A DNA stretch of 64,000 bases from positions 704,001-768,000 of the forward strand of contig CP045477.1 in NCBI GenBank assembly GCA_009392915.1, in the 5' to 3' direction. The position numbers and the translations under genes were made by a program. Source of the DNA: Candidatus Forterrea multitransposorum CG_2015-17_Forterrea_25_41 (GTDB lineage: Archaea; Iainarchaeota; Iainarchaeia; Iainarchaeales; CSSED10-239). A model generated the notes under the pieces. That model was not told the DNA's origin, made no database searches, and was given only the letters and a program-made list of their open reading frames with translations. Position 1 is the stretch's first letter; each line of letters begins with the position of its first letter. Shown here piece by piece: positions 9,688-48,856 of the stretch.

Positions 9688-10197
9688 CTAAACAAACTTA
9701 GAACTTGTTGTTGCTAAAAAAGAACCTAAAAGAGCAGTTATTAATTGTAAAACACCCATGTTAATTAAAAAAACTTTTGGAAAGTTTAAAATAAAAATAA
9801 AAGCTAAAGAAACAATAAATAATAAAGAAAATTTAATTACAGAAGAGATTACTGAAGAAAACCATTTATTATTAATAAATCTTCTATAAGAAACAATAAA
9901 GATTAAGTTTGAAAGCCAAATAAAAGGAAGATAGTATAAAAGAAAAGAAGTATTTGTACTAAAAATAATACCTGCACTTAAAACTCCTAAAGAAGGTAAA
10001 AAAAGTAAAGGTAATAAATATTTAAGTTTAAAATAAAGAGCAGCTCTTATTAAAAAGAAATTAACTAAAGTACCTATAAGCCATTGAGGATGACCTATTA
10101 AAAAAGGAAGAAAAAAAGAAACTATTGAATAGATTGTAAACTCATAAACTTCTAAGTTTATGTATTTATAGTTTTGTTGTTGTTTGTAAAGATTCAT
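9688..10197 (-). CDS. Polytopic membrane protein, hypothetical
   Basis: 169 aa with four to five hydrophobic segments. Confidence 0.4.
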   Translation of the reverse strand: MNLYKQQQNYKYINLEVYEFTIYSIVSFFLPFLIGHPQWLIGTLVNFFLIRAALYFKLKYLLPLLFLPSLGVLSAGIIFSTNTSFLLYYLPFIWLSNLIFIVSYRRFINNKWFSSVISSVIKFSLLFIVSLAFIFILNFPKVFLINMGVLQLITALLGSFLATTSSKFV

Positions 10198-10208
10198 GTT
10201 TATTTCTT

Positions 10209-23176: not shown

Positions 23177-24337
23177 TTTTAAAAAAAAAGAAAGAAAACA
23201 AAATTGTGTTGCATAACTCTTTTTAAAAGTATTGTCTAACCTATTTTATTACTAGATAAAGGAGGTTAGACAATATGAATATTAAGAACGAAAAGATTAA
23301 TAAAAGGAACTGGTCAAAGATAAATTATGGAAAAACAAGACAAATCTTGTTTTTACTAGATAAAAACATTATTTTTAGTGAAAATGAAAGACTAGTTTCC
23401 CAAAATAAAAACAAACCAGGAAGACAATTTATATATAGTGATAGAATAATAGAACTATTAATTGATCTTAAAAATTATTTTAAATTTGATTATCGTAAAC
23501 TACAGGCATTCTGCCTGTTGTTTAATAATGTTATAAAAATAAAAACACCTGACTTTACAACTATTTGTAGAAGAATGCACAAATTAGAATTATTTCTAAA
23601 AAATATAAAAACAAAAAAAGAACCAACCTTTATAGCTATAGATGGTTCTGGACTTCAAACTACTAATCGAGGAGAATGGCTTAGATTAATACACAAAAAA
23701 GGAAAAATAAACTTAAGAAATGGATTTGTAAAATTAGTGATTGCAACAGATGTTGCATCTGGAGAAATAACTGGAGTGTATATTTCAGATGATTCTGATT
23801 TTGAAAATAAAAGCTTATCAGATTTATTATACCAAACAATAAATAATCAAAACCAAGAAGTCAAAGGACTTCTTGGAGATGGGGCATACGATTCTTATGA
23901 TAACTTTGATATGCTTGATGATATGGGAATAAAACCAATTATCAAAATCAGAAAGAATGCAATTACAACAGAACCTAATGACGATTATTTAAAAAGAAGA
24001 AGAAAACTTGGAAAAAAGAAAAAAATAAAAAGAATTGAAGTTGCAAAAAAGCAACTTAAAAATGTAGATGACTGGAAACAAAAAAATGAGTATAATAAAA
24101 GGTGGGTTGTTGAATACACGTTTAGTGTATTCAAAAGACTATTCGGACATAGTGTGTACTCTAAAAGAAAGAAATATGTCAAAAATGAAGTAATTTCTAA
24201 AGTAAATTTGTATAATAAATTATTAAATATCAATTAAGAAAAAAATAAAATGAATTAAAAAAAGAAATAAGCTAAAAATATTGTGTAAAACACAATATTT
24301 GTGCAACACAATTTTAAAAAAAAAGAAAGAAAACAAA
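23177..24337. mobile_element. IS-type insertion element with inverted termini (~TTGTGTTGCA, about 23204-23214 / 24301-24311), flanked by identical 26-bp direct repeats
   Basis: The direct repeat TTTTAAAAAAAAAGAAAGAAAACAAA lies at 23177-23202 and 24312-24337, immediately outside the inverted ends. Confidence 0.55.
23275..24237 (+). CDS. DDE transposase (IS4/IS5-like)
   Basis: Blocks IAIDGSGL, LLGDGAYDS and VVEYTFSVFKRLFG give the D, D, E/K pattern of IS4/IS5 transposases. The RBS AAAGGAGG is embedded in a 10-bp-stem hairpin TTGTCTAACC(23233-23242)/GGTTAGACAA(23264-23273). Confidence 0.6.
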   Translation: MNIKNEKINKRNWSKINYGKTRQILFLLDKNIIFSENERLVSQNKNKPGRQFIYSDRIIELLIDLKNYFKFDYRKLQAFCLLFNNVIKIKTPDFTTICRRMHKLELFLKNIKTKKEPTFIAIDGSGLQTTNRGEWLRLIHKKGKINLRNGFVKLVIATDVASGEITGVYISDDSDFENKSLSDLLYQTINNQNQEVKGLLGDGAYDSYDNFDMLDDMGIKPIIKIRKNAITTEPNDDYLKRRRKLGKKKKIKRIEVAKKQLKNVDDWKQKNEYNKRWVVEYTFSVFKRLFGHSVYSKRKKYVKNEVISKVNLYNKLLNIN

Positions 24338-24366: not shown

Positions 24367-25641
24367 ATGCAAACATTTAATTGTGATCTTCATTATCACT
24401 CTCCATATGCAGCCGCTTGTTCTAAAAACATAACCATACCTTTACTTGCACAAGAAGCTAGAAAAAAAGGTTTAGATATTTTAACTACAGCAGACATCCT
24501 ACACCCTGTTTGGCTTAATCACGTTAAAGAAAACTTAATTGAAGAAAATGATTGTTTTAGATACAAAGAAATCATTGAAGGAAAAAAAATATATTTTCTC
24601 TTAGGAACAGAAGTTGAAACTGAAGGAAGAGTACATCATCTTCTTTATTTTAAAAATTTTAAACATATTGAAGAATTTAAAAAAGAAATTAAAAACTTTT
24701 GTCAAGATATGTCTGTTTATGGAAGTGGAAGAACAAAACTTAAAACTACTGCAGAAAATTTATTAAACCTCTGTAAAAAACTAGAAATAATTATTGCTCC
24801 TGCACATGTCTTTACCCCTTATTTTGGAATATTTGCACATTTTAATTCTTTAAAAGAGGCGTATGGTAAAAACTGGGAATATGTTAAGTTTATTGAACTT
24901 GGACTTTCAGCAGATACAAAAATTGCAAACACAATTCCAGAACTTAAAAATATTAAATTTTTTTCATTTTCAGATTCTCATTCTCCTTTAAGTTATAGAA
25001 TAGGGAGAGAATATATTTCTCTTGAGATGGAAAGAGCAAACTTTTCTTCTTTTAAAGATCTACTTGAAAATAAAAAAGGAAAATTACTTTATAATGTAGG
25101 ATATAACCCAAGAGAAGGAAAGTATGGTTTAACTGCTTGCTCTAAATGTTATCAACATTATACTTTAAAACAAGCTATTGAAAATAAATGGAAATGTTCT
25201 GTTTGTAAAAAAAGTATTAAAAAAGGAGTTTTAGAAAGAGCAGAAGAAATGGCAGCCTTACAAGGTAACTCTTCTTTAAAACAAATAACAAAAAGACCAG
25301 ATTATAAATATCTAATGCCTTTAGCTCAAGTTATCCAGATTGCAATTAATCAAAAAAATATTAATCATAAAAAAGTTATTGAAATTTATGATAAGTTTAT
25401 TGAAAAGTATACAGAGATTGAAACTATGCAAAGTATTCCTTTTGAAAAACTAAAAGAGATTGATGAAAATATTGCAAAGTACATTATTTCTTTTAGAAAA
25501 GACTTAGTTGTTTTCCATCCTGGCGGTGGAGGAAATTACGGAACTCCATTTATATTTTTCACAAAAGAAGAAAAAGAAAAAAAAGAAAAAGAAATTAATG
25601 AAAATCTTTATCTAAAAGATCTTCAAAAAAAATTATTTTAA
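24367..25641 (+). CDS. PHP-domain phosphoesterase with C-terminal Zn ribbon (COG1379-like)
   Basis: N-terminal CDLHYHSPYAA (PHP HxH motif). C-terminal CSKCYQHY...CSVCKK. Confidence 0.45.
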   Translation: MQTFNCDLHYHSPYAAACSKNITIPLLAQEARKKGLDILTTADILHPVWLNHVKENLIEENDCFRYKEIIEGKKIYFLLGTEVETEGRVHHLLYFKNFKHIEEFKKEIKNFCQDMSVYGSGRTKLKTTAENLLNLCKKLEIIIAPAHVFTPYFGIFAHFNSLKEAYGKNWEYVKFIELGLSADTKIANTIPELKNIKFFSFSDSHSPLSYRIGREYISLEMERANFSSFKDLLENKKGKLLYNVGYNPREGKYGLTACSKCYQHYTLKQAIENKWKCSVCKKSIKKGVLERAEEMAALQGNSSLKQITKRPDYKYLMPLAQVIQIAINQKNINHKKVIEIYDKFIEKYTEIETMQSIPFEKLKEIDENIAKYIISFRKDLVVFHPGGGGNYGTPFIFFTKEEKEKKEKEINENLYLKDLQKKLF

Positions 25642-25653: not shown

Positions 25654-28600
25654 TTAAACAGGGATTTGTACTCTTACAATTACAACTCCAGAACCACCTG
25701 AAAGACCTCTTGTACCACTACCAGAAGCTTTTCCATCCCCACCATTACCAGTATTTGGAGCACCTGCAGAACCACTATTTTCACGAGAATTACCTCCTGC
25801 AGCATAAATTACATTTGATCCAGTTATGTCATTTGAGGTACCAGGTCCTCCTACACCATATCCAGGAGGAGATGCCCAACAACTACCAGAACCTCCAGAA
25901 CCAGTACCACCTCTATTTTGAGGAGGACAAGCATAATTTGTAGAAGATGATCCTCCAGAACCTCCAGATGCTATTGTTCCATTAAAGAAAGAATACCCAC
26001 CTGCAGTTCCTGCTGTATTATAAGATCCACCAGATCCACCAGATCCCACTACAACATCATAAGTGTCAGCAGAACTGGATACAAGTCCATAATATCTATA
26101 TTGGCCGGCATTTCCACCATTACCATTATAACCACCACCACCACCACCACCGCCGACGACTAAGTATTCTAACATATACATTGGGAAGTCTATATTTATA
26201 GTGTAAGTTCCAGTACCACTTCTAAATTTATGAACACGGTATGCATAACCTCCTGAAATTCCCTCGGTTACTGTTGCTGTACCTGTGTGAGTAGTAATTA
26301 TTTTTCTAACCTTTAAAGTGTAGGTTGCAGAGGTTGCACCTTGTGTAACATTAACAGTAATTGTTTTTAAATTACCATCAGAAATGCTTATAGGGCTTGA
26401 TGCTGATCCAGATGAAACAGTTGAACCATTTACAGTTATTGTTCCAGTACCAGTAGGAGTTACAGTAATACTGTTAGTTGTACTAATTAAATAAAAAATA
26501 TCATTATAATTATATGTATTTGAATTAAAAGCAAATCCAGAAGGATTATTACTTAATTCTAAATTTGAAAGACCAGCAGGAATTGTTACGTTTATACTGC
26601 TTTGACTTCCCCAACAACCGTTTGTAGATCTTGCTCTAAAATAATAGGTGCCATTAGAATTTACTGTTTGAGGAGTGCCTCCTAAAGAGGTACTAGTACC
26701 CATTGATGTAGTTCCTTGGAAATATATAGTTCCACCTGAACCACCAGTTGCAGAAATGGTTGCAAACCCAGGACCACTATTTTGAAGAGATATACTTACA
26801 CTTCCTGGTTGAGAAAGTATAGTTGCAGTAACTGGAACTCTTGTTGTTAAATTACAAGTTCCGCCTGTCACTCCTACATAATAAGTTGTTGTCCAATTTA
26901 GAAGTGGAGTTGTAAAACTATTTCCTGTTGCAATTGGAGAACCACCAGTTGATGAAGTATACCATTCAATAGTTCCGCTTGTTGTAGTTGCACCTAAAGT
27001 TACAGAACCATTACCACATCTTTCTCCAGGAGTAACATTTACTGTTGGTGGAGATGCAATAGTCACTGTTTTTGAAACACAACTTGTTGTATTACAAGTA
27101 CCTGAAAGTCTTGCATAATAAGTTGTAGTTGAGGTTGGACTTACAGTTAAACTTGAAGAAGATCCTAATGAAATTGCAGTCCCACAAGTTCCAGCATACC
27201 ATTGATATGTAGCACCAGTTCCAACAGTTCCACCTATTGCAGTTAAAGTAGTTGGAGATCCAGAACATACACTTGTATTTCCAGTAATTGAGGTTGGAGC
27301 AACTGAAGGTGTATTAAATGAAACAGTTGCACTTCCTTGAGTACCCCAAGTACCAGAAGTAGATCTTGCTCTAAAATAATAAGTTCCAGGACTTGAAACA
27401 ACTTCTGATGTTGAAGCATTCATTGTACTGGTACCATTAGAAGTTGTGCCTTGATAATAAATTGTTCCATTAGCACCACCAGTTGCAGTTAAAGTTGCAT
27501 TAGCATTACAAGTTGCCCCACCACCTAAAACAGTTACTGGATCAGGAGTTATATCTACATTATAATAACCTTGAACTAAATCACTTGAAGTCCATCCTGT
27601 TTTATAAGCAATTGCTTTTAATGGAGTTGGAGAGTTAATTAAAACACTTTCTCCATGATTAATAACATTTACTCCACCTTGAACAGGTGTAGAGTTGTCT
27701 AAAGTATAACTGATTTGTGCTCCAGGCACAGAAGTAATAACTACATTTTGTGCAGTTGAATAAGTTCCAGGTAAAGGACTAAAGGTTGGTGAATTTAGTT
27801 TAAAAGTATAATCTGCTTGAGAAACAGAACTTTCAAGATAACCAGACTTGTAAACTATTGCTTTTAAAGTTTGATTTCTGGTTACAGGGATTGAAGTTCC
27901 GAGATATTGAGTTGAACTTGATGTTGGAGTATCACCATTGGTTGTGTAATAAATACTATAAGGAAGAGGAGTTGTAGTTGATAGATCTACAAAAATATTA
28001 TTATTGTATGTTCCTGAAGGACTTGAGAAAGTAGCAGGATTTGCAATTAATTGAACAGTGAAAGTTTGTGTGGCAACAGGACTGGTTGAATAACCAAAAG
28101 CATAACAAACTGCTTTTAAAGTTGTAGTGGATGTAAAATTAATTGGAGAAGAATAAACTGTTCCATCATCTCTTGTTGGATCAGTTCCATCAGTTGTATA
28201 TCTTATGGTGCTTGAAGGTGTGGAACAACTTAAAGTAACATTAACACTATTTGTGTGGGTTCCACCGTTTGGTGAAAAGGTAGGAGTTGCAGCAGGAGCA
28301 TTTATAGTGTAAACACCAGTTGAAACATCACTTGAAGTCCAACCTGTTTTGTAAGTGATTGCACGTAAAGTAGAGGTTGAAGTGATTGGAACAGTTGACT
28401 CTCCACTATTGATTTGTGTACCAGTTGTCTGTGTTGGAGTTGCTCCATTTATAGTGTATCTGATTTGGGCACCAGCAACAGAAGTTATTGCTACAGATTG
28501 AGAATCTGAATATGCACCAGGAGAAGGACTAAAGGTTGGTGCATTTAATTTGAAGACATAATCTGCTTGAGTGACAGAACTTGCAAGATAACCAGGCTTA

Positions 28601-30858
28601 TAAACAATTGCTTTTAAAGTTTGATTTCTGGTTACAGGGATTGAAGTTCCGAGATATTGAGTTGAACTTGAAGTTGGAGTATCTCCATTTGTTGTATAAT
28701 AAATACTATAAGGAAGAGGAGTTGTGGTTGATAGGTCGACAAAAATATTATTATTGTATGTTCCTGAAGGACTTGAGAAAGTAGCAGGACTTGCAATTAA
28801 TTGAACAGTGAAAGTTTGTGTAGCAACAGGACTGGTTGAATAACCAGAAGCATAACAAACTGCTTTTAAAGTTGTAGTGGATGTAAAATTAATTGGAGAA
28901 GAATAAACTGTTCCATCCTCTCTTGTTGGATCAGTTCCATCAGTTGTATATCTTATGGTGCTTGAAGGGGTTGTACAACTTAAAGTTACATTAACACTAT
29001 TTGTAAAAGTACCACCGTTTGGACTAAAGGCAGGAGTTGCAGCAGGAGCATTAATAGTATAAACACCAGTTGAAACATCACTTGAAGTCCAACCTGTTTT
29101 GTAAGTGATTGCACGTAAAGTAGAGGTTGAAGTGATTGGAACAGTTGACTCTCCACTATTGATTTGTGTACCAGTTGTCTGTGTTGGAGTTGCTCCATTT
29201 ATAGTGTATCTGATTTGGGCACCAGCAACAGAAGTTATTGCTACAGATTGAGAATCTGAATATGCACCAGGAGAAGGACTAAAGGTTGGTGCATTTAATT
29301 TGAAGACATAATCTGCTTGAGTGACAGAACTTGCAAGATAACCAGGCTTATAAACAATTGCTTTTAAAGTTTGATTTCTGGTTACAGGGATTGAAGTTCC
29401 GAGATATTGAGTTGAACTTGAAGTTGGAGTATCTCCATTTGTTGTATAATAAATACTATAAGGAAGAGGAGTTGTAGTTGATAAATCAACAAAAATATTA
29501 TTATTATAAGTTCCTGAAGGAAGAGAAAAGATTGCAATATTAGCAGGAAGAGTAACATTATAATCTGCTTGAGATATTGGACCGGTATTTGAACCTACAG
29601 CTGCCATTGCCTTAATAGTTACAGGAGATGATATGTTAATTGGACTTGAATAAACTGGACTTAAAAGAGTAGGATCAAAACCACTTGTGGTATAATGAAT
29701 AGTTGCACCAGGATTTGAATTACTTAAAGTAATATTTTGTATTGTAGAATAATCTCCTGCAGGAGGATTAAAAATAATAGGATCTAAAGGTACAAAGAAA
29801 CTATAAGTAAAAGTTGAAACTGAACTATCATTATAATTTTCTCTACAAGCAATTGCTTTTATGGTAGAGTCTGCAGAAACATTTATTGGAGAAGTATATT
29901 CTGAAAAGCTACCTGAACAATCAGGAATAGAAGAATCTAAAGTATAATAAATAGTTGAAGAAGAGGTTGCACTTGAAAGAACAACATTAATTGGATCTTC
30001 TAAATTTATAGAACTATCAGGAGTTGCAGTTACTGAAGATACAGTATCATAAGAAACTGTGTAAGTTCCAGAAGCAATTCCAGATTTAACACTGTTATAT
30101 TCAGAATATGCCATAATAGTTGTTCCAGGACTAATTGAAATAGGAAGCCCTAAAGTATAAGGTATACCGCTAGTATAAGGATCACTACCATCTATTGTAT
30201 AATAAACAGAAAAACTTGGATCAGATACATCTAAAGTTATAGTTGATGGAAAAGAAAAATAATTATAAGAACCAGGAACAGGATTAAATAATGGTCTTGA
30301 AATCACTGTTGTTTTAGGACCACTATCAGACCAATTAAAAGAATATCTAGAAGATTTTTTGGATTGATTATTTTTTGAAACTTCTATAGATAAATAATAA
30401 GAATCTCCACAAGAACCATTACCTAAATCAATATCTGAAACAATTAAATTATTTGTAATAATTGGATTTAAGTTATCTTCGGGAATAATATTCCCATCTA
30501 AAATAACAGTGTAATCTCCCTCATTTAAAACATCATTATCTTTATTTTCAATAATTAATTTATAAGTACCCTCTCTCGATAAAGGTTTCCAAGAAAAAGA
30601 TAAAAGCCCAATTTTTCTTAAAGTTCCACCTACATCAATAGTTTCACAATCTAAATAATTAGCTTTAACAGAAGTTATTGTTGGAGGTAAAGGACCATCA
30701 GTTGAAGAAGAAACATCATCAACTTGTTCTGATGCTGAATCTCTTGATTGACCACCTAGAGAAACTAAAATAGTTACAATAATTACAGCAACTAATACAC
30801 CACCACCAATCAATATTAAAGTTTCTAAATTACCTTGACCTTTTTTTGATGGTAGCAT
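25654..30858 (-). CDS. Giant (1734 aa) pilin-signal adhesin-like protein: class III signal plus pilin domain, chitobiase-C-type repeats (tandemly duplicated), Ig-like repeats and a Gly-rich C-terminus
   Basis: N-terminus MLPSKKGQGNLETLILIGGGVLVAVII...GGQSRDSA...CGDSYYLSIEVSKNNQ is homologous to the 43929 pilin. Repeats carry IRYTTDGTDPT motifs. Ig-like repeats carry C..G..TLTA.GG...YQWY...TYYAR..G.C. The tail has GGGGGGGG and further Gly-rich segments. Confidence 0.6.
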   Translation of the reverse strand: MLPSKKGQGNLETLILIGGGVLVAVIIVTILVSLGGQSRDSASEQVDDVSSSTDGPLPPTITSVKANYLDCETIDVGGTLRKIGLLSFSWKPLSREGTYKLIIENKDNDVLNEGDYTVILDGNIIPEDNLNPIITNNLIVSDIDLGNGSCGDSYYLSIEVSKNNQSKKSSRYSFNWSDSGPKTTVISRPLFNPVPGSYNYFSFPSTITLDVSDPSFSVYYTIDGSDPYTSGIPYTLGLPISISPGTTIMAYSEYNSVKSGIASGTYTVSYDTVSSVTATPDSSINLEDPINVVLSSATSSSTIYYTLDSSIPDCSGSFSEYTSPINVSADSTIKAIACRENYNDSSVSTFTYSFFVPLDPIIFNPPAGDYSTIQNITLSNSNPGATIHYTTSGFDPTLLSPVYSSPINISSPVTIKAMAAVGSNTGPISQADYNVTLPANIAIFSLPSGTYNNNIFVDLSTTTPLPYSIYYTTNGDTPTSSSTQYLGTSIPVTRNQTLKAIVYKPGYLASSVTQADYVFKLNAPTFSPSPGAYSDSQSVAITSVAGAQIRYTINGATPTQTTGTQINSGESTVPITSTSTLRAITYKTGWTSSDVSTGVYTINAPAATPAFSPNGGTFTNSVNVTLSCTTPSSTIRYTTDGTDPTREDGTVYSSPINFTSTTTLKAVCYASGYSTSPVATQTFTVQLIASPATFSSPSGTYNNNIFVDLSTTTPLPYSIYYTTNGDTPTSSSTQYLGTSIPVTRNQTLKAIVYKPGYLASSVTQADYVFKLNAPTFSPSPGAYSDSQSVAITSVAGAQIRYTINGATPTQTTGTQINSGESTVPITSTSTLRAITYKTGWTSSDVSTGVYTINAPAATPTFSPNGGTHTNSVNVTLSCSTPSSTIRYTTDGTDPTRDDGTVYSSPINFTSTTTLKAVCYAFGYSTSPVATQTFTVQLIANPATFSSPSGTYNNNIFVDLSTTTPLPYSIYYTTNGDTPTSSSTQYLGTSIPVTRNQTLKAIVYKSGYLESSVSQADYTFKLNSPTFSPLPGTYSTAQNVVITSVPGAQISYTLDNSTPVQGGVNVINHGESVLINSPTPLKAIAYKTGWTSSDLVQGYYNVDITPDPVTVLGGGATCNANATLTATGGANGTIYYQGTTSNGTSTMNASTSEVVSSPGTYYFRARSTSGTWGTQGSATVSFNTPSVAPTSITGNTSVCSGSPTTLTAIGGTVGTGATYQWYAGTCGTAISLGSSSSLTVSPTSTTTYYARLSGTCNTTSCVSKTVTIASPPTVNVTPGERCGNGSVTLGATTTSGTIEWYTSSTGGSPIATGNSFTTPLLNWTTTYYVGVTGGTCNLTTRVPVTATILSQPGSVSISLQNSGPGFATISATGGSGGTIYFQGTTSMGTSTSLGGTPQTVNSNGTYYFRARSTNGCWGSQSSINVTIPAGLSNLELSNNPSGFAFNSNTYNYNDIFYLISTTNSITVTPTGTGTITVNGSTVSSGSASSPISISDGNLKTITVNVTQGATSATYTLKVRKIITTHTGTATVTEGISGGYAYRVHKFRSGTGTYTINIDFPMYMLEYLVVGGGGGGGGYNGNGGNAGQYRYYGLVSSSADTYDVVVGSGGSGGSYNTAGTAGGYSFFNGTIASGGSGGSSSTNYACPPQNRGGTGSGGSGSCWASPPGYGVGGPGTSNDITGSNVIYAAGGNSRENSGSAGAPNTGNGGDGKASGSGTRGLSGGSGVVIVRVQIPV
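27571..29820 (-). repeat. Tandem 750-bp (250-aa) in-frame coding repeats, about 2.3 units near-identical at the DNA level, inside the giant adhesin gene
   Basis: tgaaacatcacttgaagtccaacctgtttt recurs at 28321 and 29071. Hundreds of bp are identical between 27790-28560, 28321-29070 and 29071-29530. Confidence 0.7.
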
Positions 30859-30891: not shown

Positions 30892-31563
30892 TTAATTAAT
30901 ATAAATAAAAAATGATTTAAATCCCTCTTGTTGTAAAAACAATTCTCCTGAACATTTATCATATGAAAGCATTAAATTTTTCATAAAGTCAAGTGAACTA
31001 TTTAAAAATTCAGGATTAGACGCATCTAAATTACAAGAACCTTCTTTAGAAATTAAATGTTTTGAAGACTCATTTAAACCAACTTCCATTTCTGCAATAC
31101 CTTCTTCAGTATAACCATCATCTAGATACATTTGTTTTTGAGCATCTAAAAAAGATGTATTATGATCTAAAAGTTTTAAAGAAACTATACATTCATTAGA
31201 TTCATTAAGTCCTTCAATAGAATATTCTACAGAATAATTATATCTACTACCTGCTGAAGGATAGTCAATAGATTCAGTTGAAGAGAAAACTACATTTTCT
31301 TGACAAGTTGAAAAATTATTTGAAAAACAAGCAAAGTCTTCACAATATGTGTTAGGATCAACTACTTCTTCTGGAACATGAGGTTGATTTTCATCTCCCG
31401 CACCACCATTAGGATTTATTGTATCTATATCATCTGGTAAATTTTCAAAAGAAGAATCGTCAATAACATCTTCTTGTGGAGAACTTACAAGAACAAAAGC
31501 AACTGCAGCTGCTAAAACTAGTAAAACTAATAAAATTATTATAATTGGTCTCAAAAATATCAC
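30892..31563 (-). CDS. Signal-anchored Cys-containing acidic secreted protein, hypothetical
   Basis: N-terminus IIIILLVLLVLAAAVAFVLV. 223 aa. Immediately upstream of the giant adhesin on the same strand. Confidence 0.35.
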   Translation of the reverse strand: MIFLRPIIIILLVLLVLAAAVAFVLVSSPQEDVIDDSSFENLPDDIDTINPNGGAGDENQPHVPEEVVDPNTYCEDFACFSNNFSTCQENVVFSSTESIDYPSAGSRYNYSVEYSIEGLNESNECIVSLKLLDHNTSFLDAQKQMYLDDGYTEEGIAEMEVGLNESSKHLISKEGSCNLDASNPEFLNSSLDFMKNLMLSYDKCSGELFLQQEGFKSFFIYIN

Positions 31564-40281: not shown

Positions 40282-40647
40282 TTAATCCTCAAATTTATAT
40301 AATATTATTTCTGGTTTGTTTTGATAAAGTGTATATTTACCAGTTATTTTTATTTCTTTTTTAAAAGAAAATGCATTTTGTAGTAAATCAACATTAGTTT
40401 TTGATGGATTAAAATAAACCACATCTATGCATGAAGAAAGATTACATATTTTAAAAAACAAATTATTGTTTTCAAGAGAAAAATCTTTTAAATTTCCTGA
40501 AACTAACACTACTTGTTCCAAAAGAGAAGAATCTGGTGATAAGAGGTCTAAAATAGGTGCTTTAAAAAAAAGAGTGCAAAAAAGAAAAATTAAAAGTGAG
40601 ATTATAATTGTTAAAATTAAAAATAAATTTAATTTTTTTTCATCCAT
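40282..40647 (-). CDS. N-terminally anchored hypothetical protein in the pilus locus
   Basis: 121 aa. One TM segment, then a soluble domain. Start/stop abut the neighbouring genes. Confidence 0.35.
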   Translation of the reverse strand: MDEKKLNLFLILTIIISLLIFLFCTLFFKAPILDLLSPDSSLLEQVVLVSGNLKDFSLENNNLFFKICNLSSCIDVVYFNPSKTNVDLLQNAFSFKKEIKITGKYTLYQNKPEIILYKFED

Positions 40648-40651
40648 ACTT

Positions 40652-41143
40652 TTATTTAATAATTTTTTTTATTTTTACAGGTTTTTTATTTACAAAAAAT
40701 TTAGATAATTCAATTAAAATTACAGTGCCTTCTTTTAAAGGTTTTGAATATTTTAAAGAAAATTCTTTATTTAAATTAAAGAAAGGATCTTTAATTTTAA
40801 AATAAACTTCTTTAGAAGTGCTTTTTGTAACAACTCCATAAGTTATGTTAAATAATACTTTAAATAAATATAAATAAAGTACAACAAGACACATAAAGAC
40901 TAATAAAAAATAAATATGTGTGATATATTGAGAAATAATAAACATCCCTAAAATAGATGTAAACCCAATACCTACATAATTATATTTTGCTTTAATTAAC
41001 TTATAATTACCAATTTCTTTAATGTAGAATAAAAAAGTTAAAAGCATTAATAGTATTTTTAAAAATAAATTACCAGGAACAATTAAATTCACAATAATTG
41101 AAAATAAAAAAATAATCTCTAAATAAATAATATGCTTATCCAT
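40652..41143 (-). CDS. Membrane protein (4 TM plus soluble C-terminus) in the pilus locus
   Basis: 163 aa. Confidence 0.35.
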   Translation of the reverse strand: MDKHIIYLEIIFLFSIIVNLIVPGNLFLKILLMLLTFLFYIKEIGNYKLIKAKYNYVGIGFTSILGMFIISQYITHIYFLLVFMCLVVLYLYLFKVLFNITYGVVTKSTSKEVYFKIKDPFFNLNKEFSLKYSKPLKEGTVILIELSKFFVNKKPVKIKKIIK

Positions 41144-41159
41144 AATTTAATTTCACCTA

Positions 41160-41522
41160 TTAAATACATTCTAAACTAATACTAATATTATCAAACTTTG
41201 TTCTATCTAACAAACCATTAGTTAGTGTTGTGTAATTATAATCATCAGGAACTATTGGACAATTAGTTTCAAGTCCTTTATTTAAATAAACAATCATATC
41301 TAAGTTATCATTATCAAATACATAATTAATAGTGTTAATTGAATAAGAATGATTATATCCAGCGATATATTTTAATGTTAAATTTTTTGTTTTATGCATA
41401 GCAATATTAATATCAAAAGTTGATGTTAAAGTTGCAACTACAGTTATAGCTATAACCATTACAATTAAAAGAATAATTAAAAACTCTAAACTAGTTTGAG
41501 CTTTTTTATCTTGAAGCAACAT
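41160..41522 (-). CDS. Minor pilin (class III signal)
   Basis: MLLQDKKAQTSLEFLIILLIVMVIAI: A|QTSLEF. Confidence 0.55.
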   Translation of the reverse strand: MLLQDKKAQTSLEFLIILLIVMVIAITVVATLTSTFDINIAMHKTKNLTLKYIAGYNHSYSINTINYVFDNDNLDMIVYLNKGLETNCPIVPDDYNYTTLTNGLLDRTKFDNISISLECI

Positions 41523-41982
41523 CTATATCTCCAGCAATAGTTTTTTCAACAACTAAATAATTATTAAACCCTGGTCCAACTTCATCACAAGTAAAATCTA
41601 CATCTCCAATAGATACTAATTTTTCAAAAGTACAGATGTTTGTAGTAGAATCACATGCAGAGATATTAGGTTTAGGATTTTGAGAAGAAATTGATATTTG
41701 GTATTCAATAATGTTTGTTGCAGAATCACAGTTTATAATTTTTGCATTATCAGGAAGATAAAAATAAACTAATCTTTTACCATATCCAGGAGAACTTGCA
41801 AAAGATGCTAAATCATCTCCAAGTTTATCAATAGATTGTTTTGTTTGAGTAATATTATAAATATCACCTACAATATTTTCTGAAAAAACAATATTTGGAT
41901 ATATGATTGCTTGAAAAAATAATAATAAAATAGATATTAAAATAATGTATTCAATTGCAATTTGTCCTTTTATATTTTTCAT
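41506..41982 (-). CDS. Minor pilin (class III signal)
   Basis: MKNIKGQIAIEYIILISILLLFF: G|QIAIEY. Confidence 0.55.
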   Translation of the reverse strand: MKNIKGQIAIEYIILISILLLFFQAIIYPNIVFSENIVGDIYNITQTKQSIDKLGDDLASFASSPGYGKRLVYFYLPDNAKIINCDSATNIIEYQISISSQNPKPNISACDSTTNICTFEKLVSIGDVDFTCDEVGPGFNNYLVVEKTIAGDIDVASR

Positions 41983-42013
41983 TTAAAATTCCTTCCTTTT
42001 ATATTATTTAAGC

Positions 42014-43135
42014 TTAAAAAATAAACCAAATAAAATCTCCAAAAATATTTAATAAAATATACGCTATTAACACAGAAGGGGTAAATGGAATTGTTTTTTT
42101 TAAAACTATCTCCTTCTCTAAATTATGTTTATATGAACTCTTTAAAAAGGTTATGTCTTCAGGTAAAAGACCCCCTATTTTCCTAGAATCTATGATTAGT
42201 TTATTTGATTTTTGTTTAGAGGTATATTCTTTTAAATAATCAATAAAGGATATTTTTTTTTCAATAACTTTTTTATTTGATAAATAATAATTATTTAAAA
42301 CAACATCTCCTTCTTTTAAATCATTTATTTTTTTACTAAAAGTTAATATCTTTGAAGAAATTATTTTATAAAAAGTTATACTTAAGAAAATAATAATAAT
42401 AGTTATAGTAATTATTAATAAATCATAGAAAACAAATATTCTTTTTGAATAAAACAAAGAATATCCAATTAATAATAAATAAAGCCCTAAAACTAAATAA
42501 TTATAGTGAAGAATATTTTGTTTTTCAATTTTTCTAAAAAACAAGATAAACATTATAGATAATAAAAAATAAATTAAAAAAGGGATATACATTTCAAAAA
42601 TATTAAAAAAAGAAGAAATTAAGAAAAGTATTAAAATAGAACTTACTAAAGAAAATAATGTGTTTTTTGTTTTTAATAAATTTATAAGTATTCTATAGTG
42701 TCTTTTAAATATAAATAAATAAATAGAACTAATTAAGAGAATAGGTGCTGTAGAAAGAATAGCAGTTAGTATTAAAGTCAAAGAAAATACAGGGATTGTT
42801 ATTATTTTAAAAGAAAATAAAAAGCCTAAAAAATTAATATTAAAAGGATTTAAGAAAGAAATTGCAGAAAACAACTTTAAATCACCACCTGCAAAGAAAC
42901 CAAACTCCCAAAGAACATACCCTACAATAAAGGTTATACCAAAAGATAAAAAAGCATTAAGAAGAATAGATATTTTTGAGAAATAAATTGTTTCTATTAT
43001 TTTAAAAATAACTCCAATAATTAATAAATATAATACTAAAAAATTTGGAACAATTCTTTTTTTAATATCATAATAACTTGCAAATAATAAAAATATCAAA
43101 GTTATTGAAAATGCAAAAAAAGGAAAGTTAAACAT
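42014..43135 (-). CDS. Prepilin peptidase (A24 family, PibD/FlaK/TadV-like) with an about 130-aa C-terminal extension
   Basis: Asp23 in SYYDIKKRIVPN. Second Asp in FFAGGDLKLF (GxGD-type). Multi-TM. 373 aa versus the typical ~250. Confidence 0.6.
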   Translation of the reverse strand: MFNFPFFAFSITLIFLLFASYYDIKKRIVPNFLVLYLLIIGVIFKIIETIYFSKISILLNAFLSFGITFIVGYVLWEFGFFAGGDLKLFSAISFLNPFNINFLGFLFSFKIITIPVFSLTLILTAILSTAPILLISSIYLFIFKRHYRILINLLKTKNTLFSLVSSILILFLISSFFNIFEMYIPFLIYFLLSIMFILFFRKIEKQNILHYNYLVLGLYLLLIGYSLFYSKRIFVFYDLLIITITIIIIFLSITFYKIISSKILTFSKKINDLKEGDVVLNNYYLSNKKVIEKKISFIDYLKEYTSKQKSNKLIIDSRKIGGLLPEDITFLKSSYKHNLEKEIVLKKTIPFTPSVLIAYILLNIFGDFIWFIF

Positions 43136-43160
43136 ACATTATTTTCTCAACAAAAATTAT

Positions 43161-43349
43161 TTATAAAGAAGCTAAAATATTATCTCTATAAGTTAATATT
43201 TTAGATTTTGCAACAGTTATAAAACTATTTAAATTTAATATAACAATACCTGTTGTAATTACTAAAATCATACCAAAAACAATCATGATTAGATATTCAA
43301 TAGAGACTTGACCTCTTTGGTCATTTAAAAGTAAATTTAATCTATTCAT
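43161..43349 (-). CDS. Flp-size pilin (62 aa)
   Basis: NDQRGQVSIEYLIMIVFGMILVI: G|QVSIEY. Confidence 0.55.
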   Translation of the reverse strand: MNRLNLLLNDQRGQVSIEYLIMIVFGMILVITTGIVILNLNSFITVAKSKILTYRDNILASL

Positions 43350-43372
43350 AATATATAATCACTAAATCTTAA

Positions 43373-43840
43373 TTACCTTGCAACACATGAAGATGCAGGA
43401 GTTGATGGTCTTGAATGAACATTATTTTTAACAGTTATAACTGATACTTCATACTCTGTTCCAACTGAATCTACAGATAAATCACTTGCAGGAACCTGTA
43501 AAATACTAGTGCCTTCTTGAACATATAACACATCTGTTCCTGATGGATAAGGATCATTATTATCTATTTTTATTCTATAACCTGTATTTGGAGCTGAAGA
43601 TACTAAATTAATAGTTACATTTCCACTTGCAACACAATCAACACTTGTAACAATTGGTGGAACTAAAGTATTATCTAAAATAGTTGTAATAGCTTCATCT
43701 TGCTGCAAAGCAGCTTCTCTATTAGAAGCATTCATATTAGTTATTAAAATAATCACAGAAATTGCAATAATTATAGTAGCACCAATCAAAAGCAAATATT
43801 CCATTGCTCCTTGTCCTTTTTGTTTTTTTAAAAATGTCAT
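43373..43840 (-). CDS. Pilin with C-terminal beta domain
   Basis: KKQKGQGAMEYLLLIGATIIIAI: G|QGAMEY. Confidence 0.6.
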   Translation of the reverse strand: MTFLKKQKGQGAMEYLLLIGATIIIAISVIILITNMNASNREAALQQDEAITTILDNTLVPPIVTSVDCVASGNVTINLVSSAPNTGYRIKIDNNDPYPSGTDVLYVQEGTSILQVPASDLSVDSVGTEYEVSVITVKNNVHSRPSTPASSCVAR

Positions 43841-43880
43841 AAATTACCATCTTTCTTTTAAAAATAAAAAAATAAAATAA

Positions 43881-43909
43881 AGTTGATTTTTTTTAAAAAA
43901 AAAAATCAA
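43881..43909. terminator. Hairpin GTTGAT8-A11TCAAC between the first long pilin gene and the downstream pilins (candidate attenuator/terminator)
   Basis: GTTGATTTTTTTT...AAAAAAAATCAAC lies 20 nt after the stop of 43929..44447. It shares the GTTGATTT/AAATCAAC core with 22572-22600. Confidence 0.5.
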
Positions 43910-43928
43910 CCTATTTTTAATTAACTAC

Positions 43929-44447
43929 TTAATCAACCCAACTAAATCTATAACCTTGAGATGTTACTGTTTGGTTATTCTTTGTTGTTTTAATATATAA
44001 GTAGTAAGAGTCACCACATTTGTTACCACTATTTAAAGTTAAATCCACATTTAAACCGTTAACTTCATTTGGATTTAAATCTGTTTCATCAATTGTCTCT
44101 AAACCAGAATTATCTGTTAATGAATCTATTGTTAATTCATTATTACTTGAATCCATGATATATAACTCGTGACTTCCACCTTCACCTAATGGTCTCCAAG
44201 AGAAATTTAAGTCAGCAGTTAATGCAGTTGAATCACATGCATCATATGCAGCAACAACTTGTACAATTTGTGATGGTTGAGGAACGTCTGTTGCTTGATT
44301 TGCTTTTTCAGCTTGAGCAGCAGCAGAGTCTCTTGATTGTCCACCCATACCTACAAGTAATGCAATAACAATAACAGCAATTAATACTGCACCACCAATT
44401 AAAAGAAGATACTCAAGAGCACCTTGTCCTTTAAATTTTTTATTCAT
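43929..44447 (-). CDS. Pilin (172 aa) with conserved C-terminal CGDSYYLYI..KNNQ..SQGY.F.W domain
   Basis: MNKKFKGQGALEYLLLIGGAVLIAVIVIALLV: G|QGALEY. Confidence 0.65.
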   Translation of the reverse strand: MNKKFKGQGALEYLLLIGGAVLIAVIVIALLVGMGGQSRDSAAAQAEKANQATDVPQPSQIVQVVAAYDACDSTALTADLNFSWRPLGEGGSHELYIMDSSNNELTIDSLTDNSGLETIDETDLNPNEVNGLNVDLTLNSGNKCGDSYYLYIKTTKNNQTVTSQGYRFSWVD

Positions 44448-44579
44448 TTTTAAACACCTTTTTTATATTTTTTAAACATCACACATAAAGTGTATAACTA
44501 ATAACTTGTACTAGTTAAATTAATTAAAATATTACATACAATATATTTATATATGTTTCTTTTCAATATTTCAAACCAA

Positions 44580-44753
44580 TTAACTATTATTAACTATTGA
44601 TTGATAGTCAGTTGCAGTCTTAACATTCTTTGCAGAAGTTTGTTTTACAAAAATTCCAACAGTTAATGCAACTAATATAACAACTCCAGTAATAATTATA
44701 AACTCTAAAGAAACCTGTCCTTTATTATCTTTTATTAATCTTCTTAATTTCAT
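44580..44753 (-). CDS. Short Flp-type pilin, 57 aa (not in ORF track; candidate major pilin)
   Basis: Reverse-strand ORF: ATG at 44751-44753, stop at 44580-44582. MKLRRLIKDNKGQVSLEFIIITGVVILVALTVGIFVKQTSAKNVKTATDYQSIVNNS. G|QVSLEF motif. Confidence 0.55.
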   Translation of the reverse strand: MKLRRLIKDNKGQVSLEFIIITGVVILVALTVGIFVKQTSAKNVKTATDYQSIVNNS

Positions 44754-44755
44754 AT

Positions 44756-45652
44756 CTAAACCATTCCTGAAAGCATTAAATTAAGTATTACTTGAGAAAT
44801 AAAATATACTATATATCCAATAGTAATTAATACAGGGAAAAATAAAACTACAAAGCTTAAATCTCCTTCTCTCATAACACTTATCATTGATGCAGCAGCA
44901 AATATTTCAATAACAATATAAATATCTAAAAGTAAAAAGATTGTTTTTTGAGCATCTAAAGAAACTTGTAAAGCCTCTGCTGCTGCAATTCCTGAATTTA
45001 CAGCTATATCTGTTAAAAAACCAGTAATTACTCTTGTCATTCCAAAAATAAATGGAGCCACAATTGCAGAAGCAGCAACAATAAAAATTGTTTGAAGCAT
45101 TGTTTTTGTTTGTCTTTCCTTTTTAACCCTGAACAATTGTTTAGTGTCATTTGCAATTTCTTCTAAAACATCAGCTAATTGTGCACCTGTTCTTAAAGAT
45201 TCTTGAATTAAAGTAATAGTTCTTCTTACAATTTTAGATTCAATTCTTAAAGCTAAATAACTTAAAGCAACATACATTGAATCTCCCATTTCAAGTCTTC
45301 TAATAGCTTCATTAATTTCAAAAGAAAGGGGTCCGAAATCAGCAGTGGATACTTCTCTTAAAGCAAAATCAAATGAAGAACCAGCCTTCATTGTGTCTGC
45401 AATTAACTTTAAAGAATCTGGCCAATATCTTTCAATTTCTCTTATTTTTTTAAAATAAAGATACATTGGAAGACCTAAACCTAAAACTAAAGCATTTACA
45501 AATAATAAAAGTCCGATCTTTATATCTAAGAAATAACCGATTATCCCTAAGAATATACTTGCAAAAAATATTAAAACAATCCATATTTTTGCAGGAATCT
45601 TTATTTTTAAAGCATATAAAAATACTTGATATCTGTCTAATCCTTTACTCAA
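44756..45652 (-). CDS. TadC/FlaJ-like platform protein (single T2SS-F domain)
   Basis: About 6 TM with a cytoplasmic helical domain. It pairs with 45659..46804. Confidence 0.55.
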   Translation of the reverse strand: MSKGLDRYQVFLYALKIKIPAKIWIVLIFFASIFLGIIGYFLDIKIGLLLFVNALVLGLGLPMYLYFKKIREIERYWPDSLKLIADTMKAGSSFDFALREVSTADFGPLSFEINEAIRRLEMGDSMYVALSYLALRIESKIVRRTITLIQESLRTGAQLADVLEEIANDTKQLFRVKKERQTKTMLQTIFIVAASAIVAPFIFGMTRVITGFLTDIAVNSGIAAAEALQVSLDAQKTIFLLLDIYIVIEIFAAASMISVMREGDLSFVVLFFPVLITIGYIVYFISQVILNLMLSGMV

Positions 45653-45658
45653 ATTAAA

Positions 45659-46804
45659 TCACATTTTTGGTTCAATCATTTTAATATAATATACTAAAAA
45701 GATGAATATTATTGGTAGTGCTACTGCAAAAATTAAAGTTAATGTTGTTGGTGTCATAACTCCTGGTAAAAACAAAGATCCATCTTGTCCTAGAGGAGCA
45801 TTTGCAATTGCACCTAAAATTGCAGCAAATACAGGCATAACAATAGCCATGAAAATAAAAATAATTCCAAAGAAATTCATTTTTTCTCCGAATGTTTTAG
45901 TAGATTCTAAAAGATCAAAAGATACTGTGTCTGCAACACTATTAATTGTGCTTGCCAAATTACCACCTGTATTTAATGTTCTAACAATGTGGAAAAGTGC
46001 AATGTTATAATTTTTAGATTGACTTCTTAATGCAGAATGTCTTAAAGCTGTTTTTGTATCAGTACCATTTTCAATTTCTAAGATGGTTCTATTCATTTCT
46101 TCTGATAATACACCATAATCATTTGCAGCAACAGATTGTAATACTTTATAAAGACCAATACCTGCTTGAAGTTCTGTTGCAATATGTCTTAAAGCAAATG
46201 GAAGTTCAATATCAATATAGACTCCTCTGGATTTTGCTTTTTGCATTGGAATAACATATGAAAGAATAAAAACAAATACTAAAAATAAAATTGGCCAAAT
46301 AAAAAGGATACTAACTGTCCATAAAGGCATAGTTGCAACAAAAATAATTAATAATAAAAAAGATAAAAAACTTGCAATCAATAAAGAAAATATAGTTGAA
46401 AGAACTAAATGTTGTACTAATGTTCTTTTATAGTTTGCAGAGGTTAAATAATAAGATATTTTTTTACCTAAAGAATTCTTTAAAATATATAAAACCACAG
46501 AATCAACTAATTTTTTAAAAGGTTTATAATATTTAGCAGCACTTTTTTCAAGAGTACCTTCTGTATTTGCAGCTAATTTATTTTCAGCATCAACATCAAA
46601 CTGAGAAAGTCTACCTTGAGAAATTACTTCTCTTAGTTCTTTTAAATGACCTTCAGATAAAGATTCAGATGTAATATTTTTGTCCTTTTCTTTCATTTTT
46701 TTAACAATATTTTGAACAGCATCTAAATCTACATCTAAGTCGTCTTTCTTGGATTTATTTTTTTCTAAATCACTTTTTAAAAGTTCTAATTTTTTTGAAT
46801 CCAT
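45659..46804 (-). CDS. TadB/FlaJ-like platform protein (single T2SS-F domain)
   Basis: ELPFALRHIATELQAGIGLYKVLQSVAANDYGVLSEEMNRTILEIENGTDTKTAL is T2SS-F-like. Confidence 0.6.
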   Translation of the reverse strand: MDSKKLELLKSDLEKNKSKKDDLDVDLDAVQNIVKKMKEKDKNITSESLSEGHLKELREVISQGRLSQFDVDAENKLAANTEGTLEKSAAKYYKPFKKLVDSVVLYILKNSLGKKISYYLTSANYKRTLVQHLVLSTIFSLLIASFLSFLLLIIFVATMPLWTVSILFIWPILFLVFVFILSYVIPMQKAKSRGVYIDIELPFALRHIATELQAGIGLYKVLQSVAANDYGVLSEEMNRTILEIENGTDTKTALRHSALRSQSKNYNIALFHIVRTLNTGGNLASTINSVADTVSFDLLESTKTFGEKMNFFGIIFIFMAIVMPVFAAILGAIANAPLGQDGSLFLPGVMTPTTLTLIFAVALPIIFIFLVYYIKMIEPKM

Positions 46805-46840
46805 TAAAATCTTTTTTTTAATTTATTTTAAATATATATA

Positions 46841-48856
46841 CTATCTTTTTAGTATATATTCTTTTTGGACTTCATGTGCAACATCATTAATAGCCCTAAT
46901 TTTCTTAGAACGTAAATCTTCAAGGATTTTTGCTCTATCACTAATTTTATTTAAAATATCTTGATCATTTAAGTTTGTGTATGTTTTAATTAAATCAAAG
47001 TAAAGAATAGGTTCTTTAGTTCTTTCAAGAGAATCTGTTTCAGGATTCCAAACAAAGACCATATTTATCTTTGGATCTCCATCTAACACACCCATAATCT
47101 CTGCAATTGCAGTAATTCTTCTAACTTGTCCTTTTGAAGTTCTTAATCTTTTTTGAATAATTATAAAATCAATTCCTGCAAGCATTAATGGAGGAACATC
47201 CATTGGTGGTGAAGTTAATCTTACAATTGTTTCTTTTGCAGAATTTGCGTGCACTGTACCCATACAACCATCGTGACCAGTGTTCATGGCAGTGAAAAGA
47301 GTAGTTGCTTCTTTGTGTCTAATTTCACCTACAACTATTCTATCAGGTCTCATTCTTAAAGTGTTTTTAGTTAAGATTTCTAAACTTAATTCACCTTTTC
47401 CTTCTAGGCCTGGTGGTTTTCCTTCAAATCTAATTACATGCTTTATAGGAAGTCTTAATTCCGCAGTGTCTTCAATTGTTAATATTCTGTCTGCTTCTGG
47501 AATAAAGTTTGCAAGAACATTTAATGTAGTTGTTTTTCCAGAACCAGTACCACCTGAAATTAAAATATTTGCAGGTTTTGCACCAAATCCTTCAACAACA
47601 CACCACAAAAATGCAGCTACTTCTAAATTAAGTGTTTTAAAGTTTATTAAATCAACTATAGTGTAAGGATCATCTCTGAACTTTCTAATAGTAACTGTAG
47701 AACCATCAATTGATGCTGGAGGCACAGTAGCATTTACACGAGAACCATCTGGAAGTCTTGCATCTAAAAGAGGATTTGAAATATCTACACTTCTTCCTAA
47801 AGATCTTGCAATTTTATCAATAATATCATTAATTCCATCATCTGAAAAGAAAATAATATTTGTTGTCATCATTCCATAATCTACATGGTAAACATATACT
47901 GGTTTTTTAGGACCAACAATCATAATTTCTTCTAATTTGTCATCTTCAAGTAATGGTTCAATCACACCATAACCAGTCATTTCTTTAACAACTGCATCTG
48001 CATAAAAAGGATAAAGATGTTTTGGGATATTTATTTCTTGTGCAGTTTCTAAAATATCAATTACTTTTTGATAATATATGTTTTTTCTTTGAAGAGGATC
48101 TCTTATTTTATAAGGATCAGAAGCAACAAGTCTTGTGGTTGCTTCTTTTAAAGTATTAATTATAATTTTTTGACTAGGATTTGGTTTTGGAACAGGAACA
48201 GAATAGTGTAATATAGATTGAGTGTCAAGTCTATAAATTTTAACTTCACCATATTTTGTAACTAATGTAGCCCCATCAATTTTTTCTTCTTGTTTTTCAA
48301 AAGCAGAATCTCCTTTTGTTTCAGAAAGTTCTGAAGATTTTATTTCTGAATTAGTATTAAGTGCTTTTAATTTTGAAAGGGCATCAAGTTTATTTTGTTT
48401 TTGTGTATCTGTATCAAAAACAGAATCTTTATCATCTTCAATTAATTTTTTTTCTTTTTCAGATAAATCACCAATATCTAATGTTTTTGATTTTTCTTGA
48501 GAGTCTTGTTTTTCAGCATTTTTTGCTTTTAATCTTTCAAATAAAGAATCTTGTGATTCTGTTGAATTTACTTTTTCTTGTTTTTTAGAAGAATCAAATT
48601 CAGATAAATCCATTATTTTTTTGTTTTGTGTAAAAGAAGATGGCTCTTGTGATTTATTGTGAGAATCAACATCAACAGATTTTTTTTCAAAAAAGTTATC
48701 TTGCTTTAAAGTTTCTTTTTTAGAATCTAGAGAAATTTCTTCTTTCTTTTCAGGTGCATTTTCAGCAGCTTTTCTAGCTTCTTCTTTTTGTTTATCTTTT
48801 TCTAAACTATATTTTCCAACTAAATCATCAATATATGAGGGCATAAAATTATTCAC
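46841..48856 (-). CDS. Pilus assembly ATPase (FlaI/TadA/GspE family) with a disordered K/E/S-rich N-terminal region of about 230 aa
   Basis: ILISGGTGSGKTTTLNVLANFI (Walker A), ILTIEDTAELRL (Asp box) and a His box region. Confidence 0.8.
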   Translation of the reverse strand: MNNFMPSYIDDLVGKYSLEKDKQKEEARKAAENAPEKKEEISLDSKKETLKQDNFFEKKSVDVDSHNKSQEPSSFTQNKKIMDLSEFDSSKKQEKVNSTESQDSLFERLKAKNAEKQDSQEKSKTLDIGDLSEKEKKLIEDDKDSVFDTDTQKQNKLDALSKLKALNTNSEIKSSELSETKGDSAFEKQEEKIDGATLVTKYGEVKIYRLDTQSILHYSVPVPKPNPSQKIIINTLKEATTRLVASDPYKIRDPLQRKNIYYQKVIDILETAQEINIPKHLYPFYADAVVKEMTGYGVIEPLLEDDKLEEIMIVGPKKPVYVYHVDYGMMTTNIIFFSDDGINDIIDKIARSLGRSVDISNPLLDARLPDGSRVNATVPPASIDGSTVTIRKFRDDPYTIVDLINFKTLNLEVAAFLWCVVEGFGAKPANILISGGTGSGKTTTLNVLANFIPEADRILTIEDTAELRLPIKHVIRFEGKPPGLEGKGELSLEILTKNTLRMRPDRIVVGEIRHKEATTLFTAMNTGHDGCMGTVHANSAKETIVRLTSPPMDVPPLMLAGIDFIIIQKRLRTSKGQVRRITAIAEIMGVLDGDPKINMVFVWNPETDSLERTKEPILYFDLIKTYTNLNDQDILNKISDRAKILEDLRSKKIRAINDVAHEVQKEYILKR

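Follow-up and report, generated by a model that had tools for sequence, protein, structure and literature searches.

A three-domain tandem super-repeat in a putative DPANN surface-fibre gene, probably maintained and altered in number by recombination

In a window of 64,000 nucleotides (nt) from the DPANN archaeon Candidatus Forterrea multitransposorum (contig CP045477.1, positions 704,001 to 768,000), we found that the gene of a putative surface fibre of 1734 amino acids (aa) carries a tandem super-repeat of 750 bp in the predicted stalk of its product. This repeat is probably maintained, and changed in number, by recombination. The gene has a clear repeat structure with a chimeric junction, its copies follow a pattern of concerted evolution, and syntenic orthologues differ from it by one unit. 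The coordinates of the features are collected in table 1.

The repeat was measured by identity scans at fixed offsets across the gene. One strong signal was obtained, at 750 nt, where positions 27700-28789 matched 28450-29539; the repeated block covers 27700-29539 and amounts to 2.45 units of 750 bp, in frame (250 codons). At an offset of 1500 nt the match remained only at 27700-28039 (85%), and above 29540 the offset-750 identity dropped to background, which for in-frame 750-nt blocks of the fibre gene is 33.3 ± 1.9%. Tandem Repeats Finder, with a longest allowed period of 500, did not report the repeat, and the rest of the window yielded no further long direct repeats. A preliminary description of this DNA, which had placed a repeat inside a large gene for a putative surface fibre, is supported on this point. 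Its 750-bp period with exact identity was confirmed, since its example (28321 against 29071) falls inside an exact tract of 416 bp, and its in-frame unit of 250 aa was borne out, with the open reading frame (ORF) on the minus strand. The extent that it gave (27571-29820) was not borne out, and three full units do not exist, as the block comprises only 2.45. In the frames used there, units 1 and 2 are 80.9% identical, and units 2 and 3 are 73.5% identical, the latter pair consisting of about 400 nt at 100% followed by background. The diverged third unit that it placed upstream corresponds to a partial unit (27529-28029) lying downstream in the gene, on the C-terminal side.

The 250-aa unit is not a single domain but a super-repeat of three unlike CHB_HEX_C_1 domains, A (82 aa), B (85 aa), and C (83 aa). 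Domain A starts at aa 444, 694, and 944, domain B at 526, 776, and 1026, and domain C at 611 and 861. Adjacent domains (A-B, B-C, and C-A) share 32-41% identity, whereas domains of the same type, three positions apart, share 93-99%; B1 and B2 differ by one residue. The array is closed by B', an old and diverged domain of the B type, which is 50% identical to B1 and B2 at the amino acid level and resembles B in its DNA only over the first ~84 nt (27700-27783).

When copies I and II were compared in domain register, 29 mismatches were found in 750 nt (96.1% identity). Ten of them lie in the first 54 nt and 19 in the last 280 nt, while unit nt 55-470 contain none, and in a permutation test a clean run as long as these 416 nt was obtained in 0 of 200,000 random placements. 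Among the 23 codons that differ between the two copies, 16 are synonymous, and the synonymous sites are all identical across the 416-bp tract; therefore, selection at the protein level cannot explain the identity. The idea that purifying selection on the protein, not recombination, holds the copies together could draw on the structural and conserved character of the domains and on the near identity of B1 and B2. However, besides the silent sites, orthologous copies differ by 7-10%, with many synonymous changes, in relatives whose flanks are 95-96% identical. Such selection is extremely improbable, and it was ruled out as the cause of the identity.

The three-way site patterns among the copies pointed to the origin of copy II. 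Seven informative sites fall in unit nt 3-46, and at each of them it equals copy III; at all 37 that fall between unit nt 84 and 328 it equals copy I. Judged from these patterns, the chimeric copy II marks an unequal crossover inside domain A of an ABC-AB' allele. In L001, a syntenic orthologue with 95-96% identity and a length equal to that of the window gene, the copy switches from III-like to I-like near unit nt 259-264. Since this switch point differs from that in the window, it represents a separate event in the L001 array.

To compare the DNA, we used L003 and L004 (~99% alleles), L001, L002 and L005, the paralogue L008, and the distant positional orthologue L009, all of them short-read metagenome assemblies, as were all other sequences compared. 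Relatives of the fibre gene also came from a scan of genome contigs (two truncated relatives, both from one metagenome-assembled genome, MAG) and from a metagenome scan (four loci). The window protein is identical to the database member P0131, and its 90% cluster includes partial proteins from the NCBI MAG records 'archaeon' and 'Candidatus ainarchaeum sp.'. The syntenic orthologues L002 and L005, with ~94% flank identity, have the layout ABC-AB' and exactly one unit (250 aa) fewer, their proteins being 1479 and 1488 aa long against 1734 aa in the window. They share with the window the order DnaJ, PRPP synthase, RtcB, a 223-aa protein, the fibre gene, and MJ0043_C, and the L005 protein (P0134) was seen on 9 contigs.

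In neighbor-joining trees of the A, B, and C segments, the copies clustered by genome in all five lineages. Only B' grouped by position across genomes; therefore, B' has escaped homogenisation. Repeat copies within a genome are 96-99% identical, as against 89-93% between orthologous copies and 95-96% in the flanks, and the informative sites between the window and L001 comprise 37 concerted, 5 orthologous, and 5 crossed sites. The ABC-ABC layout is present also in the distant orthologue L009 and the paralogue L008. Taken with the clustering by genome, this argues for recurrent exchange, beyond one recent duplication. Moreover, in the ~99% allele L004 (P0130), a tract of copy I carries the copy II state at 16 of 16 differing sites, and among the ~99% alleles five single-nucleotide polymorphisms (SNPs) of the identical tract, at 29302-29307 and 29244 with partners at 28552-28557 and 28494, never change in one copy without the other. 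Thus, the recent or ongoing homologous recombination that had been proposed from the sequence alone is upheld by the chimeric copy II, by the 37 against 5 sites, and by the conversion tract in one allele. The proposed variation in copy number was seen between syntenic orthologues, as one unit fewer, but not within the ~99% population, where all full-length proteins recovered have 1734 aa.

An alternative is a single recent tandem duplication, followed by point mutation only and without continuing exchange. One unequal crossover suffices for the chimeric A2, only 2.45 copies are present, and the ~99% alleles are uniform in length, which speaks in its favour. It does not fit the mismatches between copies I and II, which are far from uniform (0 in 416 bp, then 19 within 270 bp; none of the 200,000 permutations matched), the different switch point in L001, the clustering by genome in five lineages that include a distant orthologue with ABC-ABC, or the 16-site tract copied from copy II in L004. 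We therefore consider it unlikely.

Two tight SNP clusters of the fibre gene, at 29863-29876 (aa 328-332) and 29590-29637 (aa 408-423), define two haplotypes. With P0132 and P0133, these haplotypes are found in all four combinations with the variants of the repeat tract, as is expected of recombinants between two strains. Homologous recombination, two main strains, and recombinant variants have been reported for the Ca. Forterrea population (PMC5905446). The same study gave SNP-linkage evidence for recombination in a 'putative chitobiase gene' (PMC5905446), which may be the fibre gene of the window. At another locus, after PPDK, L008 has a paralogous gene (6001-10620) with a pilin module, ABC-ABC, and RCC1 repeats at its end. 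In L012 (3001-7585), unit one is similar to the gene of the L002 type, whereas unit two is similar to that of the L008 type, and the 5' part is out of frame; this mosaic could be due to exchange between paralogous loci or to chimeric assembly. Internal repeats are also common among homologues: in 67 of the 120 best homologues, some stretch of 80 aa recurs within the protein with 80% identity or more, and the periods of such high-identity repeats among these 120 range from one to nine domains.

Another explanation is that the number of units or their perfect identity was produced by short-read assembly, curation, or polishing. The likely source genome was assembled from short reads and curated by hand (PMC5905446), and for another repeat-containing gene of this genome all de novo assemblies were wrong (PMC5905446), which would favour such an artefact. 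Many MAG contigs, including one of 332 kb, break within the fibre gene (aa 126-584), and SNPs coupled in both copies are the outcome of mapping to a collapsed repeat. Against this, the 99% cluster contains five distinct full-length proteins, recovered from assemblies of JGI, ENA, and NCBI, which all have 1734 aa, as does the more divergent P0138, and the exact tract is bracketed by 10 and 19 distinguishing sites that serve as anchors for read pairs. The L001 array, whose exact runs do not exceed 101 bp and can be resolved by reads, has the same 2.6-unit layout and the concerted pattern as well. The genome was closed with even read coverage (PMC5905446), and most contig ends lie upstream of the repeat, at strain-SNP clusters (gene nt 983-996 and 1222-1269). 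We consider an assembly artefact quite unlikely.

Nevertheless, some points weigh against recombination as the force that maintains the repeat and changes its number. The identical tract of 416 bp is beyond the phasing of single reads, and artefacts of consensus or threading could underlie both the coupled SNPs and the tract in L004. The ABC-AB' forms may be collapsed ABC-ABC-AB' arrays, and all full-length ~99% sequences (five distinct proteins) have one length, 1734 aa. Furthermore, recurrent independent duplication and gene conversion yield the same concerted pattern and are not fully separable here, and the surface location, rod shape, and adhesion of the product are deduced from its architecture. 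At the fibre gene, assemblies from short reads should not be relied on, nor should comparisons between strains.

If recombination is indeed at work, the organization of the unit would provide the route. An A-B-C unit leaves neighbouring domains unlike each other, and near identity in the DNA recurs at a distance of 750 bp. This long homology would let homologous recombination of the RecA/RadA type misalign by one unit, and unequal crossing-over would then gain or lose one A-B-C block, making the stalk longer or shorter by three domains, while gene conversion would copy patches between units. The present ABC-ABC-AB' allele would have arisen from an ABC-AB' form by a crossover in domain A, with patchy conversion since.

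In the 1734-aa protein, Pfam domains of the CHB_HEX_C_1/Fn3_assoc type were found in 11 stretches (2e-131), Ig_7 in two stretches (1.4e-21), and Gly_rich_2 at the C-terminus, aa 1549-1730 (1.4e-16). From the pilin module on, the layout is d1-d2-d3-ABC-ABC-A-B', then Ig_7, and then the Gly_rich_2 end, and the non-repeated domains d1-d3 are 22-47% identical to the other domains of the protein. The best reading of the product is a predicted fibre with a pilin module, a stalk of 11 immunoglobulin-like (Ig-like) domains, Ig_7 domains, and a variable tip. We infer its adhesin role, its presentation or anchoring through the pilin module, the rod-forming nature of the domains, and a functional effect of length from the sequence; the term adhesin is used because of the architecture and the predicted host dependence of the organism (PMC5905446). 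Pfam searches found no glycoside hydrolase catalytic domain in the protein, only CHB_HEX_C_1, CHB_HEX_C, Ig_7, and Gly_rich_2. An identity as chitobiase or beta-hexosaminidase was rejected, as the catalytic domain is absent and the label stems from the domain family. The whole protein had no match among PDB sequences, and an NCBIfam match to DUF499_antiphage, which over a short stretch scored 44.8 bits where the cut-off is 1200, was discarded as noise. The G+C content of the gene (26001-30000) is 35-36%, compared with 19-33% (mostly 21-29%) in the remaining window, and the GC skew of the plus strand at 28001-30000 is +0.26. Both probably stem from a coding sequence rich in Thr, Ser, Gly, and Pro.

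At the N-terminus, aa 1-178 of the fibre protein matched a stand-alone pilin of 172 aa over its full length in BLASTP (44% identity, E 1e-42). This pilin is encoded at 43929-44447, 13 kb from the fibre gene, in a type IV pilus operon. On the strength of this alignment, the module is homologous to a bona fide pilin, and the other homologues found for it are only short PF04021 proteins of 147-170 aa. The fibre protein carries a class III signal-like motif, KKG|QGNLE, followed by 20 hydrophobic residues. Its match to Class_IIIsignal (PF04021) reached 16 bits (E 0.012), below the cut-off of 23.7, while the stand-alone pilin, with 29.3 bits, lies above it. In an AlphaFold2 model of the module (mean predicted local distance difference test score, pLDDT, of 74), helix 14-32 has low confidence and the beta domain 55-180 has pLDDT 80-93. 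Foldseek found no match for the module in the PDB at E <= 0.001, and the archaeal pilins 8gi2 and 8fj5 were weak matches (E 0.02-0.05). The pilus operon, whose components are listed in table 1, could process and assemble the pilin module of the fibre protein. It is possible, though doubtful, that the gene encodes an archaeal modular type IV pilin of giant size, whose pilin module would place a fibre exceeding 1500 aa on the pilus or at its tip, with a reach that changes in steps of three domains and an end swapped as a cassette.

The C-terminal ~320 aa occur as at least three divergent cassettes with sharp breakpoints, reassorted relative to the remainder of the gene. In this cassette the window is 94-100% identical to L005 and 51-78% identical to L001 and L002. 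L002 and L005 themselves are 100% identical just past the repeat block (aa ~1026-1205) and 51-80% identical from ~aa 1416. This pattern suggests that the tip domain is swapped between strains or lineages. PHROG matches of the cassette (phrog_2295, and phrog_863 'tail fiber assembly' with E 5e-7) may reflect its glycine-rich composition and were not used.

Blocks of unlike domains are duplicated in other proteins, such as the two-domain G5-E unit of SasG and the super-repeats of 7 or 11 domains in titin. The array described here is similar in that the similarity recurs at the period of the block, but it belongs to another domain family and another organism, and its blocks are nearly identical in DNA and still recombining, as far as the site patterns indicate. 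A close bacterial parallel is provided by the Periscope Proteins (SasG/Aap, Rib/alpha C, Sgo_0707 SHIRT, Esp, and CdrA; Whelan et al. 2021, PMC8201768), whose tandem domain repeats are so alike in DNA that recombination within the gene is possible and length varies (PMC8201768). Like these, the fibre protein would have a stalk of tandem domains with highly DNA-identical repeats (96.1% over 750 bp between copies I and II), intragenic recombination that alters the repeat number, and a distal domain that presumably serves in binding. In contrast to them, it is archaeal, of the DPANN group, and its unit spans three domains; the class was established on long-read genomes of bacteria, with archaea unmentioned (PMC8201768). 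Highly similar adjacent domains, by which Periscope Proteins break the usual rule of less than 50% identity, are not found here (32-41%), and the array has only 2.45 units with a difference of a single unit. The putative pilin-like anchor is N-terminal and the variable end C-terminal, the reverse of the Gram-positive layout.

The modular type IV pilins PilB and PilC of Streptococcus sanguinis (Raynaud et al. 2021, PMC8179133) resemble the fibre protein in that further modules follow an N-terminal pilin module; they have a class III signal where the fibre protein has a signal-like motif, and here too a prepilin peptidase and pilus machinery lie nearby. However, modular pilins were described in bacteria and their largest multi-domain case has 860 aa (PMC8179133), as compared with 1734 aa in the fibre protein, which has 14 or more additional domains; its signal-peptide score is below the Pfam cut-off, and its processing and incorporation into a filament are putative. 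Among archaeal type IV filament (TFF) loci, system 1, with two platform genes and many pilins, is found mainly in methanogens and DPANN (bioRxiv 10.64898/2026.04.22.720090), and the operon of the window likewise has two platform genes. Large Ig-fold adhesin-like proteins were reported at TFF system 2 and subsystem 4G (bioRxiv 10.64898/2026.04.22.720090). Unlike those, the fibre gene lies 9.4 kb outside its operon and has a pilin module of its own, and repeat dynamics were not described in that survey (bioRxiv 10.64898/2026.04.22.720090).

The window as a whole has about 25% G+C and contains archaeal genes, including RtcB, CDC48, RFC, RPA, and an S-layer protein; no tRNA or Rfam matches were found across its 64 kb. 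Directly upstream of the fibre gene lies the gene of a 223-aa protein (30892-31563) that is hydrophobic in an N-terminal segment and has no Pfam match, and directly downstream that of a 424-aa protein of the MJ0043_C family (24367-25641). Both keep their places beside the fibre gene in the syntenic relatives that were fetched. An insertion of ~1.1 kb (23203-24337) with a DDE transposase (23275-24237) is located 1.3 kb past the stop codon of the fibre gene. L005 has the empty site, and ~12 nt of its sequence recur on either side of the insertion, as would fit a target duplication. This difference from L005 fits the report that in Ca. Forterrea transposons are present in some cells only (PMC5905446). 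On the low-coordinate side of the fibre gene, an envelope-related cluster was observed, consisting of a second T2SSE-type ATPase of 770 aa with a long N-terminal extension (5438-7750), an S-layer-like protein of 837 aa (11347-13860), and an M6-type peptidase of 795 aa (15540-17927).

Table 1. Positions, in the 64,000-nt window, of the fibre gene, its repeat copies and tracts, and the pilus-like operon
Feature	Coordinates	Strand	Remark
Whole fibre gene	25654..30858	-	1734 aa ORF
N-terminal pilin-like module, aa 1-180	30319..30858	-	BLASTP match to 172-aa pilin
Three non-repeated CHB_HEX_C_1 domains (d1-d3), aa ~190-443, before the repeat	29530..30291	-	
Repeat copy I, A1-B1-C1, aa 444-693	28780..29529	-	96.1% identical to copy II
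Repeat copy II, A2-B2-C2, aa 694-943	28030..28779	-	Three-way site patterns
Partial copy III, domain A3, aa 944-1025	27784..28029	-	92.3% nt identity to A2
Domain B', aa 1026-1110, closing the array	27529..27783	-	Diverged B type
416-bp exact tract in copy I (= 28310-28725)	29060..29475	-	Longest exact run
416-bp exact tract in copy II (= 29060-29475)	28310..28725	-	Longest exact run
Putative unequal-crossover junction in A2, unit nt 47-83	28697..28733	-	Three-way site patterns
Tract of copy I with the copy II state at 16/16 differing sites in allele L004/P0130	28918..29059	-	Gene nt 1800-1941
C-terminal variable cassette, aa ~1416-1734, including Gly_rich_2	25654..26613	-	Sliding identity
Type IV pilus-like operon	40282..48856	-	Complete archaeal-type set, 9.4 kb from fibre gene
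T2SSE ATPase of the pilus operon	46841-48856	-	
Two T2SSF platform genes of the pilus operon	44756-46804	-	
Four class III signal pilins, one being the stand-alone homologue (43929-44447)	41160-44447	-	
A24 prepilin peptidase, Peptidase_A24 with archaeal C-terminal Arc_PepC	42014-43135	-	

DPANN archaea depend on hosts, and their large surface proteins are presumed to be contact organs; to our knowledge, their variation has hardly been described. If the more far-reaching view of a giant modular pilin were true, the glycine-rich tip would be exchanged between strains and paralogous loci, and a minimal genome would possess a recombination-driven system of host attachment, an archaeal counterpart to both the Periscope Proteins and the modular pilins. 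The phenomenon itself is well known in bacterial adhesins and common in this domain family (67 of the 120 best homologues), and the conceptual gain is modest. The locus offers a sequence-level example of three kinds of variation, namely stalk length by one unit, patchy conversion, and tip exchange, and its super-repeat would keep long DNA homology available for recombination without near-identical neighbouring domains.

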